This document shows positions 1,538 through 41,958 of a stretch of 64,000 bases of DNA, piece after piece. Below the pieces are notes generated by a model, which saw only the letters and a program-made list of their open reading frames with translations, did not search any database and was not told where the DNA came from. The translations under genes and the position numbers were made by a program. How positions within the stretch are numbered: position 1 is the stretch's first letter; each line of letters begins with the position of its first letter. Source of the stretch: an uncultured Methanoregulaceae archaeon (lineage in GTDB: Archaea > Halobacteriota > Methanomicrobia > Methanomicrobiales > Methanospirillaceae); contig CAWJAX010000005.1 of assembly GCA_963841015.1 (NCBI GenBank), positions 224,001 to 288,000 on the forward strand. The letters are read 5' to 3'.

Positions 1538-2206
1538 TTACAGTAAATTTGAGAATGTGTTTGGAGAAAATGAAGCCAGAAGTGCCCCAAATGCCACAAT
1601 TATTGTTACAACGAAAACCGCTTTGTTCCACGCCCACACTTTTCTTCCATCCAGTATACTAACAGGTAACATATTAAATGCGGCAATTATTGCGTTAATT
1701 TGTATTCCGGCAAGACCAAGTTTTGCTAGCAGACTGCCTGTAACTGCGGCAGAAAATCCTCCACCAATTAAAAAGATTACAACAAACGGGATGCACAACA
1801 GGAGGTTAATAAGTGGTCCTGCAATCGAGATTTTCCCATTCTGCTCTCTGCTGATTCCCCGGCCAGTGGTATCATAGATCACCGTTGCGCCAGGTGCTGC
1901 AAAAATCATTCCAACCAATGCTGCGAGTGCTGCCATTATTAATAGCATATTGTTATCCTTTCGGAATTCTGCCCAAAATCCAAATTTTATTGCAGTAAAT
2001 TTGTGAGCCATCTCATGTAATATAAATGCAACACCGACAGTTACAAGTGATATTCCCAAAGTCTCGAGCGCCCCAAAGGGTGTGACAGGAATGGCCGGAC
2101 CTAATATTCCGTTAGGAACAATCTGCACTATCAAAAATGCGAGAGAGATTGCGATCCAGGCTATGAACAGATCAAATTCTTCACGTCGGGATATGCGTTC
2201 GAGCAT
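1538..2206 (-). CDS. Site-2 protease family (M50) membrane Zn-metalloprotease
   Basis: HEMAH zinc motif, AGP, NMLPVSILDG motif, several TM segments. Confidence 0.9.
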   Translation of the reverse strand: MLERISRREEFDLFIAWIAISLAFLIVQIVPNGILGPAIPVTPFGALETLGISLVTVGVAFILHEMAHKFTAIKFGFWAEFRKDNNMLLIMAALAALVGMIFAAPGATVIYDTTGRGISREQNGKISIAGPLINLLLCIPFVVIFLIGGGFSAAVTGSLLAKLGLAGIQINAIIAAFNMLPVSILDGRKVWAWNKAVFVVTIIVAFGALLASFSPNTFSNLL

Positions 2207-2650: not shown

Positions 2651-2671
2651 ATCCGGAATTTTTTTCCGGAT
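2651..2671. terminator. Hairpin between convergent genes (probable terminator)
   Basis: Perfect 8-bp inverted repeat ATCCGGAA-TTTTT-TTCCGGAT next to T-tracts. Confidence 0.5.
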
Positions 2672-2703
2672 TTTCTGTAACATTGCAAAAAACAGGGAAT
2701 TGT

Positions 2704-3795
2704 TTATCCCAACTGTCCAAGAAGGATAACTGCCCCGAGTAATACCAGTGCCACTCCTATAGCCATTCTGAGCACCCGCTTGTACTCTGCCCTCATGCTG
2801 TCGGCCCGTTCCGTGGAAATACCGTATGCAAAGAGAATGGTGATCAGGAGGAGAGGAAGTATATAGACAACGTTATACAGTACAAGCCATGGCAACCCGG
2901 ACATTACGGTCATCTCCTTTCCCATCAGACTGAGTATACCGATATAGATCCCCCCGGTACAGGCAAAACCGAGGATTCCGGCCAAGATCCCTAATACAAA
3001 TGCTGCGGGGAGCGATGCGATTCGGATATAGTTCCCGAGTAGTCCTTTTTTCGAGTCTGGTATTGACAGGATAAAGGTCTCCTTGTTCCGGAGCACATCG
3101 GTGATCGTTATAAGCCCCAGAAGAAGGGCCAGTGCTCCCCCGATTAAAGCGAAAATCCGTGAGAATCCGGAGAGAGAGAACACTGAGAACAGCCCGATTC
3201 CTACGAGAAGATGAAACAGGAACATCGCCGCGATATATGCACAACCAACAAGCAGGATGCGCTTCCTGCTCCCGGCAGCAGCTATCGGGATCAAGAGGAA
3301 GATCAGTACGGACAGACCGCAGGGATTGGCACTGTCAACTATGGCTGCGAAGATGACCAGCGGCAGGCTGAGTTGCAATGGTTCCTGCGGACAGGTGGGA
3401 TCTTTATCTGGTGTCCCTGGTTGGGCGGTGCCGTTACAGGACGCGAGACGCTGTTTCTCGATAAGGATCTGAGATTCAAACCGGTCTGTAATCTCAGTAT
3501 CGCCGACCAAGCTGCTGTTCCCGATAAAGACTACGGGAATTCCCGGATTGGTAACTCCGTACTTCCGGCTCATTTCCAACAATTTTTTCCCGTTGTCGGG
3601 ATTGTTATAGACCTCAAGCCGGATAAGGTTGAGTTCAGGATAACGGGTTTGAAGATCGGCGAGGAGAGGTTTTACCTTTTCACAATGACTGCAACCGTCA
3701 CCGTAAAAATAAAATGCACTGATAGTCGAATTTAATGATGAAACATTTCCTGATGGGGGGGATGTCTTTTTTAATTCCGTTTCATTAATTATTGC
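2704..3795 (-). CDS. Thioredoxin-like domain plus CcdA/DsbD-type transmembrane electron transporter; no in-frame start before the Trx domain
   Basis: The frame of ORF 2704-3582 stays open upstream and encodes AFYFYGDGCSHCEKVKP (CxxC). The TM part has DSANPCG and FACTGGIY cysteine motifs typical of CcdA-like proteins. Confidence 0.8.
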   Translation of the reverse strand, partial: AIINETELKKTSPPSGNVSSLNSTISAFYFYGDGCSHCEKVKPLLADLQTRYPELNLIRLEVYNNPDNGKKLLEMSRKYGVTNPGIPVVFIGNSSLVGDTEITDRFESQILIEKQRLASCNGTAQPGTPDKDPTCPQEPLQLSLPLVIFAAIVDSANPCGLSVLIFLLIPIAAAGSRKRILLVGCAYIAAMFLFHLLVGIGLFSVFSLSGFSRIFALIGGALALLLGLITITDVLRNKETFILSIPDSKKGLLGNYIRIASLPAAFVLGILAGILGFACTGGIYIGILSLMGKEMTVMSGLPWLVLYNVVYILPLLLITILFAYGISTERADSMRAEYKRVLRMAIGVALVLLGAVILLGQLG

Positions 3796-4214
3796 TTTTT
3801 TTTTATTTGTTCGAGAATGACACCTTCGAGTTGTTCAGGAATAGCACGATCCCCTACAAGGGGTGTGTTATTACCGACAACAATGACCTCAGGAACACCG
3901 GCACTTTGAATTCCCAGTTTCTTGTGCAGTGATAGCGAGAGTGCCTGGTTGGTCTCGTTGTGCCAGGTTTCGAGGATTCTGAAATCTACGTCCGGATATT
4001 TTTTTGATAAATTCTGGATAAACGGTATTACATTATGACAATGCGGGCATTCTTCCCCGTAAAAGAAATAAACAGTAACATTTCCCTCAACTGAAGTGTC
4101 CTTTGCAGCTGAAGGGGTTTGAACTGATTGCTGGGGTATGACCAAAAAAAATACCGCGCAGGCGACCAGTATCGCAATGAACACCCCTGCAACGATCTTC
4201 AGCGTATTGTCCAT
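3789..4214 (-). CDS. Membrane-anchored thioredoxin/glutaredoxin-like protein
   Basis: N-terminal hydrophobic anchor, YFFYGEECPHC, GVP cis-Pro motif; ends in an A9 run (IKKKQ*). Confidence 0.85.
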   Translation of the reverse strand: MDNTLKIVAGVFIAILVACAVFFLVIPQQSVQTPSAAKDTSVEGNVTVYFFYGEECPHCHNVIPFIQNLSKKYPDVDFRILETWHNETNQALSLSLHKKLGIQSAGVPEVIVVGNNTPLVGDRAIPEQLEGVILEQIKKKQ

Positions 4215-4283
4215 TTCTTATCCTCTGTAGGAATCTGGTTTAATGCTTTAATAAAATGCCGGTCTGTACTGTGAGGAAAACGA

Positions 4284-5159
4284 TTATTTTAAGGAAATCA
4301 TCGTCCCCACACCGTCACGGGTGAAGAGTTCGAGAATGAGGTTGTGCTCAATATTGCCATTAATAATATGGGCATAACTGACACCATTTTCCACTGCTTT
4401 AATTAACGAGCCCACCTTTGGGATCATGCCTTCGCCAATTGCTCCTGTTTTCTGCATAGAGTTCGCTTCATCAATAGTAAGTTTACGATACACCTTTGAA
4501 CGTTTTGCATCCATCACACCATCAACATCTGTCATATTGACCAGCTTGTACGCTTTGAGGGCGATTGCGATATCCCCGGCTGCAGTGTCAGCGTTGATGT
4601 TTAAACTGCTCCCAAACCTGTCGATTGCAATAGGGGCAACCACCGGAATGTAGCTTTTGTCAAGAAGGGTGTTCAGGAGGGCTGGATCTATCCATTCTAT
4701 CTCCCCCACGTGCCCAAGATCGACTTCTTTTTGTACCCCCCCGACATCCACCCGCTGGAGATCCATTTTCCGGGCAATGATCATATTCCCGTCACTCCCC
4801 GACAAACCCACGCCCCGGGCACCGCATTTTGCGATCAGTGAAACAATCCCATTGTTGATCTTCCCGACAAGAACCATCTGAGCGATCTCGAGGGTTTCCT
4901 GGTCGGTTACCCTGAGTCCCCCGACAAATACAGATTCTTTGCCCATCGCTTTCATTTTCTCTGAAATTTCCGGTCCACCACCATGCACGAGTACTACGCT
5001 GATTCCAACGTAATGCAGGAGAACTACATCCCGGATGGCATTTTCCAGCACAACCGGATCCACCATTGCATGACCGCCCAGCTTGATTACGATAGTCTTA
5101 CCATGGAACTGCTGGATGTACGGCAGTGCCTCCATAAGAACATCCTCCCGCTTCATCAT
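4284..5159 (-). CDS. argB: Acetylglutamate kinase
   Basis: [32 protein letters not shown]; ATGA overlap with the argJ stop. Confidence 0.95.
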
Positions 5160-6313
5160 GTTGTATACCTCCCGTTTATCTCGACGTAGCGTTCGGTCAG
5201 ATCGCAACCCCATGCGGTTGCTTCTTCTTTTCCGGCTGCCAGGTCAAGAATAAAGATGACTTTTTTAGCGTGCATCGCCTCTTTAGCCTTTTTCAGATCT
5301 GCGATAATCTCTCCGGATCTGACCAGAGGATACCGATTAGTACCATCGCTTATCCAGAGTGATATTGCATTCGGATCAAAATCAACACCCGCACGTCCTG
5401 CTGCCGCAACCACTCTTCCCCAGTTTGGATCTTCCCCATACACAGCAGTCTTTACCAGAGGAGACTCGATAATGGTGCGGGCAACTTTTGCGGCTGCTTC
5501 TTCTTTTTTTGCTCCCTTTACCGTCACCTCCAGTAATTTTGTAGCTCCTTCACCATCTGCTGCGATCTGTTGTGCAAGCAAACGACAGCACTCCTCCAGA
5601 GCCCCTGAAAACTCAGCAGGATTTACCCTTCCTGATTCCCCGGTTGCAGTGCAAAGCGCTATGTCATTCGTGCTCATGTCCCCATCAACGACGACGCGAT
5701 TGAATGTGCGTCTCGTAGCCAGTGTAAGGGCTTGCTTCAGGGATTTTGCACCGATATCTGCATCGGTATAGATAAATGCGAGCATTGTCCCCATATTCGG
5801 TGCTATCATCCCGCTTCCCTTGGTAATTCCCCCAATGGTGAACGTTTCTTTTTGTACGAGAGCATGTTTGGGAAACGTGTCGGTTGTCAAAATAGCCTGG
5901 GCTGCAAGTTTCTCGGCTTCCCGGGTACATTCGATCTTTCGTGCTATTTCCTCACACTGGTGTTGTATGAGGGGGAGATCGAGATACCGTCCTATGACGC
6001 CAGTACTGGCAACACCAACAAGATCCGGTTTGACACCCAGTGCAGAACCGGCAAACCTGGTCATCGCAACAGCATCTGAATATCCTCTTTTTCCAGTGTA
6101 GGCATTGGCACAACCGCTGTTTGCGATTACTGCTTCCAGAGTCCCTTTTTTTATCTGTTTGCGCATAAGTTCAATGGGAGCTGCTTTGACAAGATTTTCC
6201 GTAAATACCCCCGCTGCTGTTCCGCTTGCCTGTATAAGTGTCAACCCGAACTTTCCTTCTTTCATCCCGGATGCTTTTACACCCTTTACTGCGCAGATGC
6301 TTTGAAAGGTCAT
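5156..6313 (-). CDS. argJ: Bifunctional ornithine acetyltransferase / N-acetylglutamate synthase
   Basis: [27 protein letters not shown] autoprocessing motif, DGEGATK, DPNWGR. Confidence 0.95.
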
Positions 6314-6817
6314 TTAACTATCAGCTCCCTCGTTGTCAGAATAGGAAGACCCCACTGCATTGATAATATCTGCCCTTGCCAGAATTCCTACCAGTTTTTT
6401 CCCTCTCACTACGGGCAAGCGAACGATTCCTTCTTTGAGCATCAGTGCCGCAGCTGCCTCGATATCCATTTCTTCTGTTGCGGTGATTACGCGACGCGTC
6501 ATTACCTTTTTTGCCGGCATGTCTCCGATGTTGCGAAGTGCATGTTTTGTTTTCTCCCAGTTGATGTACTCGCGGATGGGGATCTCGATAACCTCAAAGG
6601 GAGATGGAAGCCAAAGGTCATCGGAGATCCTTTCAGATTCAAGGAGCGAGATCAGATCAGATTCTGTGAGCATACCAACAAGTTCCGAACCTTCCATGAC
6701 CGGAAGCCCACCGATATGGTGCTTCCGCATTAAACCTACTGCGTCGCGGAGGGATGTTTCCGCAGTGCATACAACCGGGTCTTTTGTCATCGCATCTTTT
6801 ACCAACATAGTATTCAC
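6314..6817 (-). CDS. CBS domain pair protein
   Basis: Two CBS repeats (VKDAMT...IGGLPV...LVGMLTESD; VMT...RLPVV...LVGILARADI). Confidence 0.9.
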   Translation of the reverse strand: MNTMLVKDAMTKDPVVCTAETSLRDAVGLMRKHHIGGLPVMEGSELVGMLTESDLISLLESERISDDLWLPSPFEVIEIPIREYINWEKTKHALRNIGDMPAKKVMTRRVITATEEMDIEAAAALMLKEGIVRLPVVRGKKLVGILARADIINAVGSSYSDNEGADS

Positions 6818-7804
6818 CTACGGTAACATTCCTGCCCCAATCAGTCCATCCTGTTCTTTCAGGCTGCACATAAGGTTCATATTCTGAATCGCCTGGCCAC
6901 TTGCACCTTTCACGAGATTGTCTATGGCAGATATTGCCACAATCCGTAATCCTTCACTTTCGACCATGACATCACAGAAATTGCTTCCGCGGACCGCCGC
7001 AAGGGAGGGCTTCTGATACCGCACAAAGTATTCACCTTTGTAGAAGTCGCGGTATAGTTTCTCGACTTCTTTTTGCTCAAGAGGTTCATTGAGCAGGATG
7101 TGGGCCGTTGTCAGGATCCCCCGATTAACCGGCACAAGATGGGGGGTGAAATAGCATTTCGCTTTTGACCCGAGCCAGGCAAGCTCCTGTTTCATCTCAG
7201 CAAGATGGCGGTGGGTTGTCCATTTGTAGGGTCCGATATTGTCACCTACATTCGGATAGTGCGTGGTTGCGGAGGGATTGTCCCCGGCACCACTCACCCC
7301 GGTTTTCGAGTCGAAGATTACCGTGTGAGCATATTTTGCCAGGGGGGCTGCCGCAAGAGTTGCCCCGGTTGGAAAACACCCGGGGTTTGCAACGAACTTT
7401 GCATTGATACAGTCCTTCCGGTGAAGCTCAGGGATACCATAGGGAGCCGGGAAATAATCCGAGTGGATGACACCGTACACCTTCTCAAAGATCTCTTTTG
7501 GTAAACGGTAGTCGGCACTGAGATCCACTACTTTTATTCCCCTCGATAACAGCCTGCCAGCATAGGTCATTGCAGCTGTGTGAGGAACTGCAAGAAATGC
7601 AACGTCCGCATCAATGGCATCAATATCCGGGTTTTCAAATTTGAGATCGGTAAATCCTTTGAGGTGGGGATGAACCTGATCAAGGGGTGTTCCCGCAAGT
7701 TTGCGGGAAGTAGCACAGGTAACCTTTGCGGTGGAGTGGTGAACGAGGAGGCGTATCAGCTCACCACCGGCATAACCGGAAGCCCCGATAATCGCAATTT
7801 TCAT
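6818..7804 (-). CDS. argC: N-acetyl-gamma-glutamyl-phosphate reductase
   Basis: [37 protein letters not shown]. Confidence 0.95.
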
Positions 7805-7892
7805 AACAGAGTATCCGATTGTAAAAATTTAATGCTTGTTAGGTACGCTGGTTTAGATCTTAAAAAAAATACATGAAATCCGAGAAATGACT

Positions 7893-29183: not shown

Positions 29184-29236
29184 TATCTTTTTTAGAGAAA
29201 AAGGAATTCGATGGTTACATCGAGAATATTTTTTTT

Positions 29237-30322
29237 TTAGATCAGTTTATACAGGGTTGTCCGCTCCTGCAGGGTTCGCCCAATGTCTGACACTATCCGT
29301 TCCATGACCACTGGATCAAGGTAATCTGCATCGATTGCCCCTGCATTTACAGATATATCATCGGAGAACATGGTGCCGGCAAGATCATTGCCTCCGGCGA
29401 GTAACGACATCTGAGACATCTTTTGTCCAAGCTTCCCCAACGGGACCTGAATATTATTGAAATTATCGAGGAACAGCCGGGAAACAGCGGTCATCAGCAG
29501 ATCTTCCCGACCTGTCGCGCCTGCACGGGCAATACCCTCTTTAAAAAGCGAGGTATTGGTGTGGATATAGGTCAGAGGAACCAGTTCAGTAAAGCCATGT
29601 GTTTCATCCTGAATCGTGCGCAGTATGCCAAGATGCTCAGCCTGGTCCTTTGCAGTTTCACAGGAACCGTACATAATAGTCGCTGTCGAAAATATCCCCA
29701 GCGCGTGTGCTTCTTTGATAATTCGGACCCATTCAGCTGTACCCAATTTCCGGGGACAGATCACTTTTCTCACAGAGTCCACAAGGATCTCTGCCGCAGT
29801 ACCCTGTAATGACCCAAGACCAGCAGCCTTCAATCGTTCAAGAACTTCAACACTGGAAAGATTGCTTCCTGATGCCGCATAGGAGACTTCATCCGGGCTG
29901 AACGCATGGAGATGAATATGCGGTCCTACCTCATGGACCCATGAGATTAGATCACAGTAAGTGTCGATGGTAAATTCTGGATGCACGCCGCTCAGTGGAC
30001 AGATCTCAGTAACACCACGCTTGAGGGCAAGACGTACCTTTGCCTGAATTGCCAGCTTATCATTGCAATAGGCGCCATCATCATCAGCACTCCTCCCAAA
30101 GCCGCAGAAACCACAGAGATTCTTACAGATATTGGTCACATGGAGGTTCTGGTTTTTCACATACGTTACAATGTTGCCTGCTTTGCGCTCCCGAACCTCA
30201 TCTGCAGCAGATATAATTTCGAAAACATTCCGGTCCCGTATTTCCAGAAGCCGGGTTGCCTCGACCTCAGTAAGACGATGTCCACCGAGTACATCTGATA
30301 GGAGTGTTGAAATATCTGACAT
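29237..30322 (-). CDS. cofH: FO synthase subunit 2 (radical SAM), paralog 2
   Basis: HVTNICKNLCGFC, GTAAEIL, ATIMYG, RTTLY. Confidence 0.85.
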   Translation of the reverse strand: MSDISTLLSDVLGGHRLTEVEATRLLEIRDRNVFEIISAADEVRERKAGNIVTYVKNQNLHVTNICKNLCGFCGFGRSADDDGAYCNDKLAIQAKVRLALKRGVTEICPLSGVHPEFTIDTYCDLISWVHEVGPHIHLHAFSPDEVSYAASGSNLSSVEVLERLKAAGLGSLQGTAAEILVDSVRKVICPRKLGTAEWVRIIKEAHALGIFSTATIMYGSCETAKDQAEHLGILRTIQDETHGFTELVPLTYIHTNTSLFKEGIARAGATGREDLLMTAVSRLFLDNFNNIQVPLGKLGQKMSQMSLLAGGNDLAGTMFSDDISVNAGAIDADYLDPVVMERIVSDIGRTLQERTTLYKLI

Positions 30323-31926: not shown

Positions 31927-33324
31927 ATGCTCGATGCACAGCAGATAACACTCCGGTTTCTAGAGACCAAGCTGCAGGTGCATCCCGATGTCGTGCGCTA
32001 TATCCAGGAACAGGATGAGCTGGATCTCATCGAGCGCATTATTGCGCAGGTTCCCGGAGAGACTATTGTAGTTTCGGCTAAACATATTCCCGGCATGAAT
32101 GCCACACGGGATGGGACGCGGTTCCTGTCAGACCCTTCTGTTGAAATTATCAGCGGCAGCCCGGGAACATCCGGCTGTGTGAACGGGACAAGTGATTACC
32201 TCCATTATTTCCGTGACCGGTACAACCGTCTGGGAGGTATGATCCGGAGCCGGTGCGGGGCGATGCCAATCGAGGCACTGACCCGGAACACCCGTTACCG
32301 TCAGGAAGAATGTACAATCATTGGTATGGTCGTCGAGGTGAAGACCACAACAAACGGTCACCGGATTGCCGAGATAGAGGATTCTTCTGCAAATATTCCC
32401 GTGCTCTTCAGAAAAGATCGGCCGGTCTTTTCCGATGCCGAACGCATTATCCCTGACGAAGTAATCGGGGTGAAGGGCAAACTCTCCAATGACGGGAAAC
32501 TCTTTTTTGCCGAGCAGCTGTACCGTCCGGACATACGTATCGATAACACCCCCTTTACAAGTGAACAGCCTGGCAAAGCCGTTTTTATCTCTGATGTCCA
32601 CGTCGGCAGCGACACGTTTCTTGAAGAGTGCTGGAACCGGTTCGCAGACTGGCTTTCGGATTCTGATTTCTCGTATCTCCTGATTGCCGGAGACCTTGTC
32701 GATGGCATCGGTATCTATCCGGGCCAGGAAAGCGAACTGGTGATCAAAAATATCTACGAACAGTATGATGCATTCGGAACAATGATGCGGGACCTTCCCT
32801 CCCGTATGAAGATCATCATATCCCCGGGTAACCATGATGTAGTCAGGGGTGCAGAGCCCCAACCGGTGATCCCGCAACAATTTACAAAAAAATTCCCGGA
32901 TAACTGCATGCTTGTGGAGAACCCTGCACTCGTCAACCTCCAGGGAGTGCGTGTTCTCATGTATCACGGACGATCAATCGATGACATGATTGGTCTGATA
33001 CCTGGTGCATCATACGATCACAGCGGGCTGATGATGGAAGAGATGCTCCAGCGCCGACATCTTGCCCCGGCATATGGGCGCAGGACTCCCATTGCTGCAG
33101 GAAAAACGGACAGGTTAATTATCGACCCGCTGCCGGAGATCCTGCACACCGGACATGTCCACATACGAGGACTGACGCAGTACAGGGGCGTGCTCGGGAT
33201 TAACGCCGGGACATGGCAGTCACAGACTGCATTCCAGAAACAGATGAACGTGAACCCGACACCAGCGCAGGCAGTAGTAGTCGACTTGCAGACACTGTTA
33301 CCAGAAACCTTTGCGTTTTTATAA
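31927..33324 (+). CDS. polB: DNA polymerase D small subunit DP1 (proofreading exonuclease)
   Basis: OB fold plus calcineurin-like motifs SDVHVGS, AGDLVDG, PGNHD, YHG, RRHLAP, GHVH. Confidence 0.95.
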   Translation: MLDAQQITLRFLETKLQVHPDVVRYIQEQDELDLIERIIAQVPGETIVVSAKHIPGMNATRDGTRFLSDPSVEIISGSPGTSGCVNGTSDYLHYFRDRYNRLGGMIRSRCGAMPIEALTRNTRYRQEECTIIGMVVEVKTTTNGHRIAEIEDSSANIPVLFRKDRPVFSDAERIIPDEVIGVKGKLSNDGKLFFAEQLYRPDIRIDNTPFTSEQPGKAVFISDVHVGSDTFLEECWNRFADWLSDSDFSYLLIAGDLVDGIGIYPGQESELVIKNIYEQYDAFGTMMRDLPSRMKIIISPGNHDVVRGAEPQPVIPQQFTKKFPDNCMLVENPALVNLQGVRVLMYHGRSIDDMIGLIPGASYDHSGLMMEEMLQRRHLAPAYGRRTPIAAGKTDRLIIDPLPEILHTGHVHIRGLTQYRGVLGINAGTWQSQTAFQKQMNVNPTPAQAVVVDLQTLLPETFAFL

Positions 33325-33339
33325 AAAAAAAATTGAGTA

Positions 33340-41787: not shown

Positions 41788-41958
41788 AAAAAAAAATCTC
41801 GAACGTTTTGGTCTATGAATTAGTGTATCTGTACTGCCAGTCGGGTTTTAAATGATACCCGATACCTGATACCAGCAATCCCCGCACGGTATTTCACGCA
41901 GGGATACTCGATAACTGACCTTCACTCCTATGAGAGGTATATACCCGGTCAATCCCCT

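Follow-up and report, generated by a model that had tools for sequence, protein, structure and literature searches.

A thioredoxin (Trx) locus in a 64,000-nucleotide (nt) stretch of contig CAWJAX010000005.1 from an uncultured Methanoregulaceae archaeon is, in our assessment, probably a single gene that is expressed by programmed recoding. The whole stretch is referred to as the window, and all coordinates are given in window positions. From the sequences compared here, the locus is predicted to yield two products: a membrane-anchored thioredoxin of 141 amino acids (aa) and a fusion protein of ~503 aa, in which the same thioredoxin is followed by a second thioredoxin domain and a CcdA-like membrane domain. 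The two reading frames meet at a run of nine adenines (A9). The anatomy of this site, its conservation among related genomes, the purifying selection acting on the locus and its collinearity with uninterrupted homologues were established directly and are described below.

The locus is encoded on the minus strand (Table 1). Its first open reading frame (ORF1, encoding Trx1) ends with ATA AAA AAA AAG CAA TAA, and inspection of the sequence confirmed the earlier statement that an in-phase A_AAA_AAG heptamer is located one codon ahead of the stop. The –1 frame (ORF2) is open from 3834 to 2704 (376 codons). As had also been claimed in that sequence-only reading, and as ORF reading confirmed, it lacks any ATG, GTG or TTG codon until after its CxxC motif, the earliest one being a TTG at 3582, past CSHC. 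Furthermore, ORF2 does not contain a hydrophobic anchor segment ahead of its Trx domain. Ahead of ORF1, the region 4221..4256 (minus strand) contains what we take, by the archaeal consensus, to be its expression signals, namely a TATA-like A/T-rich box (4247-4256) and a GAGGA motif (4221-4225) 6 nt ahead of the ATG; no comparable signals could be read from the sequence ahead of the –1 ORF.

To assess whether this arrangement is shared, one genome per species was scanned, which returned 21 loci (labels of the style L001-L021). The sequence-only reading had proposed to examine whether orthologous loci keep the poly-A site and the in-frame stop and have a –1 ORF that lacks a start codon, and indeed eight of the 21 loci, from Methanoregula genomes distinct at species level (L001, L002, L005, L006, L007, L008, L010 and L018), matched the window in this layout. 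All nine loci share the run of exactly nine adenines, the TAA codon 4 nt later and an anchor-less –1 ORF that opens 6-63 nt upstream of the run, and ORF1 of the eight additional loci ends with ..KKK[QH] or ..KKNR. The first canonical start codon follows the Trx2 CxxC motif in seven of the eight loci whose –1 ORF reaches that motif; in L002 a TTG is found 15 codons before it, and in L006 an additional frame break ends the –1 ORF before the motif. The heptamer A_AAA_AAA is in phase in all nine loci, A_AAA_AAG in eight, and L002 carries A_AAA_AAC. The codon before Lys-Lys-Lys, whose third base is the first A of the run, is ATA in three loci, TTA in five and CTA in one. In the 41 ORFs of the window these codons account for 16% of Ile (ATA), 8% of Leu (TTA) and 3% of Leu (CTA). 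The length of nine is thus held through rare synonymous codons ending in A, indicating that the run itself is under selection. Synonymous codon identity amounted to 0.83 in the nine codons after the run, compared to a background of 0.61, which, albeit with small counts, would speak for an element at the nucleotide level behind the run. At the protein level, the 120 listed clusters of ORF1 homologues were 74-100% identical to ORF1, and 101 of them end with KKK[QHR], as A9 predicts.

The sequence-only reading had cautioned that this assembly contains many indel errors and that A9 might in truth be A10. This concern was not borne out at the locus: the alignment of window and L001 spans 7966 nt at 95.5% identity, and every one of its 15 gaps falls outside window positions 2670-7846. 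The broken frame is not an assembly error, given that the same state was found in nine genomes, including contigs (L001, L002, L010) that are named in the style of short-read assemblers (NODE_..cov, k141_), as judged from the names alone. Confusion of A9 with A10 would be a typical homopolymer error, and L006, L008 and L019 do contain other frame breaks. These are located inside Trx2 and the CcdA-like domain (L006:4240-4800, L008:4550-4630, L019:4130-4900) on contigs named contig_NNN and probably represent assembly indels; the junction is unaffected and still reads A9 in L006 and L008. We next turn to decay of the locus as a pseudogene. The ratio of nonsynonymous to synonymous substitution rates (dN/dS) was determined for six intact loci (window, L001, L010, L005, L002 and L018), between whose deep lineages dS exceeds 1. 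The start-less segment, counted as 74 codons from the run to the first conserved Met, yielded values of 0.07-0.28 (12 of 15 pairs; three had saturated dS), compared to 0.12-0.40 for ORF1, 0.15-0.30 for the rest of ORF2 and 0.07-0.30 for the –1 coding region overall. Purifying selection on the start-less segment thus excludes a pseudogene as well as a protein that starts at an internal Met. Taken together, we attach next to no probability to the idea that the break reflects a sequencing or assembly error or a decaying gene.

Comparison with uninterrupted homologues revealed what a shift at the run would restore. Residues 1-139 of ORF1 align with residues 1-139 of P0097, an uninterrupted protein of 501 aa, and ORF2 aligns from Lys-Lys-Lys onwards with residues 136-501 of the same protein. 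Other in-frame fusions read ..QKK[KNT].. at the junction, and P0241 reads ..LKKKII... Fused proteins with an ORF1-like N-terminus were only 42-66% identical to ORF1. Similarly, a search with ORF2 retrieved proteins of at least 476 aa with at most 66% identity, while truncated 289-aa calls from broken-frame loci reached up to 92%. Since close relatives appeared only as broken-frame calls and fusions did not exceed 66%, the group of close relatives did not yield any in-frame allele; A10 runs and uninterrupted orthologues, the two outcomes that would have spoken for a simple fusion, were looked for in this group and none were found. This bears on phase variation at the DNA level, in which the run would alternate between A9 and A10 at replication and switch the fusion on and off in subpopulations, with the assemblies showing the off state. 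Homopolymer runs are described as classical phase-variation sites (PMC3711429), and nine of the 120 ORF1 clusters have the ending expected from an 8-nt run. Given the number of independent assemblies, however, switching should have produced a mixture of lengths with in-frame alleles among them, whereas all nine genomes carry A9, 101 of the 120 clusters end as A9 predicts and no fused form exceeds 66% identity to ORF1. We therefore regard phase variation as highly improbable.

Natural controls were provided by five loci in which the gene after Trx1 has a start codon, an anchor (MEKTQK..) and an upstream region of its own. At the position homologous to the run, these own-start loci carry A8 preceded by ATT (L009), A6 (L013, L014) or AAAGAAA or GAGAAA (L015, L017). 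A9 is thus present in nine of nine broken-frame loci and in none of the five own-start loci (Fisher p ~5e-4, calculated by hand and uncorrected for relatedness). L009 retains a relic (..AAC CGG TAA CTG AC..) of an L002-type junction, and its –1 frame ends after 17 codons. In L013 (42-455) and L014 (3216-3761), the A6 run of ORF1 is followed in frame by the homologous linker (..KKTGSDGQ..), and the ORF terminates ahead of the upstream region and anchor of the second gene, representing a natural in-frame version of the junction. The proposal that the locus is a candidate for recoding that joins Trx to Trx-CcdA is therefore supported by conservation, by selection and by decay of the run in five of five own-start loci.

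An obvious alternative is that ORF2 is translated independently, from a non-canonical start or by reinitiation after the TAA, so that an anchor-less Trx2-CcdA protein would be made from one of two adjacent genes. The start-less segment is clearly coding, which needs only some form of translation, and ATT or ATA codons occur just past the run in some loci. In addition, the TTG of L002 was used as a start by gene callers in relatives (P0048 and others). A conserved start is missing, however: behind the run, the second codon is GTA, ATA or TTA, and the third is either ATT (five of nine loci) or ACT (four). The product would also lack the anchor seen in every complete homologue; a hydrophobic segment precedes the first CxxC in 102 of 120 ORF2 homologues, the other 18 being N-terminally truncated calls or fragments. 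Independent translation would further leave unexplained why A9 is kept up through rare codons and why the run decays where a real start and anchor are present. We thus consider it unlikely, and programmed recoding remains our preferred explanation.

Adventitious rescue would come closest to programmed recoding. An ancestral in-frame fusion would have lost one A, background slippage would suffice for expression and the short product would have no selected role. In-frame fusions that carry Lys-Lys-(Lys) at the corresponding position do occur in sister lineages, and the correction of "savior" indels has been recognised as a category (PMC5009743). At the sequence level, rescue and programmed recoding make identical predictions, and the sole difference between them is the usefulness of the short product. 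Against it, the layout is kept across two starred clades with dS > 1 and with the run length selected, so the capacity to slip appears to be under selection; moreover, Trx1 is kept as a free protein in five two-gene loci and is evidently useful in this form. Adventitious rescue is thus very unlikely in our view. The clades were taken from an unrooted tree of the Trx2-CcdA part (34 rows), in which own-start forms are interspersed with two separately starred clades of the broken-frame layout, and the in-frame fusions group in a single clade (97% support). As the tree is unrooted, it does not give the direction of change between layouts. Two variants of the architecture were observed besides. In L005 (205-561), the thioredoxin core of ORF1 is shorter by ~25 residues, although both A9 and the start-less –1 ORF are kept, and in its sister in the tree, P0070 (398 aa), the same anchor is fused in frame straight to Trx2 and Trx1 is gone, suggesting that the second part needs the anchor rather than Trx1. 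In P0247-P0250 (312-321 aa), a Trx1-like domain (CPHC, ~72% identical to the ORF1 core) is followed by an archaellin-type domain (PF01917), without Trx2-CcdA.

We propose the following model for expression of the locus, which would encode a thiol-disulfide reductase system that acts outside the cytoplasm. Standard decoding would stop at the TAA 4 nt past the run and release the anchored Trx1 of 141 aa (CPHC). Some expression events would instead involve a –1 shift of frame within the A9 run, either because RNA polymerase inserts one extra A into the transcript or because the ribosome slips back by one base on one of the two heptamers, A_AAA_AAA or A_AAA_AAG. Either route would result in an identical protein of ~503 aa that comprises the anchor, Trx1, a linker, Trx2 (CSHC) and a six-helix CcdA-like domain. 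Such a fusion would be the sole route that supplies the second part with a start codon and with the N-terminal anchor of every complete homologue. In analogy to the DsbD/CcdA paradigm, the CcdA-like core may pass cytoplasmic reducing equivalents via two membrane cysteines to Trx2, which could then reduce Trx1, tethered or free, and Trx1 might in turn serve substrates in the envelope.

Several observations weigh against programmed recoding or narrow its basis. The slippage itself, together with its mechanism and efficiency, is something we infer from comparative data. The heptamer AAAAAAG is abundant, with 42 copies in the window compared to 14.3 ± 3.8 in shuffled sequences. Matches to A9 number eight, in five runs, versus 1.6 ± 1.8 after shuffling, and two of 100 shuffles reach eight. 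A motif this common carries little weight alone, and the weight of the argument thus rests on conservation across genomes. The nine genomes are related, which makes the conservation counts non-independent; they represent perhaps four or five deep lineages. The dN/dS analysis and the tree were made without L006 and L008, with their further frame breaks, and without L007, with an N gap. L002 has C rather than G behind the run, and nine of the 120 ORF1 clusters (P0164, P0165, P0172, P0178-P0180, P0182, P0184 and P0185) end with K[KI]SSN, as an 8-nt or interrupted run would encode, an observation made at the protein level. No conserved 3′ structure was detected by alifold on nine sequences (–4.24 kcal/mol, one compensatory pair in 17; pseudoknots were outside the search), and single folds of five sequences likewise gave no stable 3′ structure (z-scores +1.11, –0.23, 0.00, –1.44 and +1.55). 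Inspection by eye did not reveal a conserved upstream Shine-Dalgarno (SD)-like element; a GAAGGTG located 17 nt before the run in the window is not kept in L001, L002 and L018. Finally, a tRNA-Lys gene was found neither in the window, where the scan detected no tRNA gene of any kind, nor in the 20 scanned loci, which are regions rather than genomes and contain one tRNA-Leu as their only tRNA.

These results also inform the choice between the two routes. The sequence-only reading had proposed a stem downstream of the run. Its arms, ATGAAAC and GTTTCAT, are indeed present in the window, but conserved pairing was not supported: 82.5% of cells pair compared to 80.5% in shuffled alignments, 94 of 500 shuffles reach this value, and the middle pair is broken in five of nine loci. 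A stem-loop or pseudoknot 5-9 nt downstream is a usual, though not obligatory, component of programmed –1 frameshift sites. The lack of a conserved 3′ structure and of a conserved upstream SD-like element weakens the case for a classical stimulated –1 frameshift. Polymerase slippage, which the sequence-only reading had also mentioned, and –1 ribosomal frameshifting are not separable from the present data; we have a slight preference for polymerase slippage, since all nine positions of the run are conserved, in contrast to any 3′ structure. The C behind the run in L002 points in the same direction. A more far-reaching version, which we put forward only tentatively, is that an archaeal RNA polymerase may slip programmatically on A9 and thereby set the ratio of free Trx1 to the Trx-Trx-CcdA fusion, with the genus displaying a complete evolutionary series of in-frame fused, recoded and two-gene forms, the last with a newly gained anchor.

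Both soluble domains are thioredoxin-like with a CxxC motif (CPHC and CSHC). The window sequences scored 20.6 and 18 bits for Pfam Thioredoxin, below the curated cut-off of 23.5, while 17 of 17 sequences scanned in the alignment matched the family (E ≤ 0.1; best E, 7.4e-14). The structure model covers Trx2, with a predicted local distance difference test (pLDDT) score of ~87, and matched thioredoxin structures at a probability of 1.00 and a target template modelling (TM) score of ~0.6. The C-terminal 228 residues, which form the membrane domain, gave no match in Pfam or NCBIfam, and when the PDB was searched by sequence with a profile of 17 sequences, matches were confined to the Trx domains. 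A full-library search with the membrane domain retrieved 3111 relatives at E of 1e-3 or better. Among 123 aligned relatives (29-66% identical), assignments to SfLAP (PF11139, 80), DsbD_TM (PF02683, 44) and DsbD_2 (PF13386, 9) were found, and Atlas neighbours carry the same families. C24 (N-P-C) and C144 (C-T-G-G) of the membrane domain are invariant in these 123 sequences, as are C159 and C279 of ORF2 in 17 sequences; the helix list of the model places the two invariant cysteines in helices 1 and 4. A first structure model from the 17-sequence alignment was unusable in the membrane part (pLDDT ~50). This was remedied with the 123-sequence alignment, from which AlphaFold2 (AF2) produced a model of the domain with a pLDDT of 89.4 and a predicted TM score (pTM) of 0.83. 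Its best match in the PDB was CcdA (5VKV, a nuclear magnetic resonance structure) with a probability of 0.94 over 233 columns, at an E of 0.15 and a TM score of only 0.43-0.44. On the basis of these results, we assign the membrane domain as CcdA-like with moderate confidence.

Table 1. Features of the A9 thioredoxin locus (window positions)
Feature	Position	Strand	Description and basis
ORF1 (Trx1)	4214..3789	minus	141 aa, membrane-anchored thioredoxin, product of standard decoding; ORF listing and translation
Hydrophobic anchor or signal at the ORF1 N-terminus (residues 7-25)	4140..4196	minus	Kyte-Doolittle peak 3.15 over 19 residues
Trx1 active site CPHC, residues 56-59	4049-4038	minus	read from sequence; conserved in six-locus alignment
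A9 run, proposed slippage site	3804-3796	minus	exactly nine A in 9/9 broken-frame genomes
Two in-phase heptamers within A9	A_AAA_AAA 3804-3798; A_AAA_AAG 3801-3795	minus	
Zero-frame stop TAA	3791-3789	minus	4 nt past the run; identical codon and distance in 9/9 loci
–1 coding region after the proposed shift	2707..3795	minus	363 codons: linker, Trx2 and CcdA-like domain; stop 2704-2706
Start-less segment of the –1 ORF	3583..3795	minus	linker and first half of Trx2; without ATG/GTG/TTG
Trx2 active site CSHC	3693-3682	minus	read from sequence
Putative CcdA/DsbD-like six-helix membrane domain	2707..3390	minus	NPC at 3319-3321, CTGG at 2959-2961
Stem-loop of the sequence-only reading	3738..3785	minus	arms 3779-3785 and 3738-3744; unsupported as a conserved element

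In the surroundings of the locus, translation points to a presumable chorismate mutase-like ORF downstream on the opposite strand (2306-2590, plus) and to two upstream ORFs on the minus strand (4284-5213 and 5156-6313) that we take to be acetylglutamate kinase-like and ornithine acetyltransferase-like, respectively. A kinase-like gene precedes the Trx locus in eight of eight broken-frame loci and also in most own-start loci. Within the anchor codons of ORF1 there is a T8 run (4144-4151, minus; GTA TTT TTT TTG GTC), after which no ORF in an alternative frame was found. Other A or T runs of 9-10 in the window are located at 1526-1535, 29229-29238, 33323-33332 and 41788-41796. The last three were rejected as further frame junctions, being at or after stop codons or between ORFs, and the run at 1526-1535 lies just outside ORF 1538..2206 according to the ORF listing. 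A scan of the window for sigma-70 promoters and terminators was uninformative, the host being an archaeon.

A close parallel is dnaX, in which the tau and gamma products share a common N-terminus and a poly-A site within the gene is directly followed by a stop in the zero or the shifted frame, as in the A9 locus. Escherichia coli dnaX uses –1 ribosomal frameshifting on A_AAA_AAG, and Thermus thermophilus dnaX uses RNA-polymerase slippage on a run of nine. Unlike at the A9 locus, where the shifted frame would give the long product, the long product tau is described for both organisms as arising from standard decoding of a single ORF. The stimulators of E. coli dnaX (an upstream SD-like element and a 3′ stem-loop) have no conserved counterpart here, and dnaX belongs to a different gene family and domain of life. 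Runs of nine A or T are reported as the length for efficient slippage by bacterial polymerase and as that of the RNA-DNA hybrid (PMC5009743). In reporter cassettes in E. coli, efficiencies of 10%, 40% and 63% were given for 7, 9 and 11 A, respectively (PMC3711429).

Among archaea, the alpha-L-fucosidase gene fucA1 of Saccharolobus solfataricus is presented as the only reported case of –1 frameshifting, and it was shown experimentally (PMC8211752). As in our locus, two ORFs overlap at an A-rich heptamer (A_AAA_AAT), a –1 shift restores collinearity with full-length homologues, and these full-length relatives have Lys or Asn at the shift site (PMC8211752). The fucA1 interruption is described from only two strains, other Sulfolobales genes being full length (PMC8211752), whereas the A9 site is found in nine species-level genomes and ~100 protein clusters. 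In addition, the product of ORF1 comprises a complete domain and could act by itself, unlike in fucA1. Overlapping magnesium chelatase ORFs with A_AAA_AAR in Methanocaldococcus, Methanococcus and several bacteria are listed as further candidates (PMC5009743, PMC3711429). They resemble the A9 locus in having a conserved poly-A shift site in a cellular methanogen gene predicted by comparative genomics (PMC3711429), but come from another gene family and another archaeal order. Thioredoxin and disulfide proteins are not mentioned in the main text of PMC3711429.

With DsbD, ScsB and CcdA, the predicted fusion would share a CcdA-type six-helix core, two membrane cysteines and extracytoplasmic Trx-fold domains, and DsbD is described as bearing its partner domains on the same polypeptide (PMC3322552, PMC2631958). 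It differs from these families in that both Trx domains are N-terminal to the membrane core, behind one N-terminal anchor, and in that its membrane domain itself has no Pfam match. Linkage of domains by a frame shift was not found described for the DsbD/ScsB/CcdA families in the literature searched, and none of the matches listed was a published report of recoding at this thioredoxin-CcdA site in Methanoregula or Methanomicrobiales.

Recoding in archaeal cellular genes is nearly undocumented, and a 2021 review asks whether further archaeal genes use –1 frameshifting (PMC8211752). The A9 locus offers a candidate that is conserved among environmentally dominant methanogens of one genus. In-frame fusions and split genes with a decayed run serve as its natural controls, and both predicted products of the locus follow a clear domain logic. 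For annotation, it is relevant that gene callers emit truncated "CcdA" proteins of 289-344 aa and separate 141-aa thioredoxins in this lineage. If polymerase slippage holds true, the locus would, to our knowledge and in the literature searched, represent the first conserved productive transcriptional realignment in an archaeal cellular gene. It makes testable whether archaeal polymerases or ribosomes slip productively on A9 and whether these methanogens may tune free versus tethered thioredoxin in this way.

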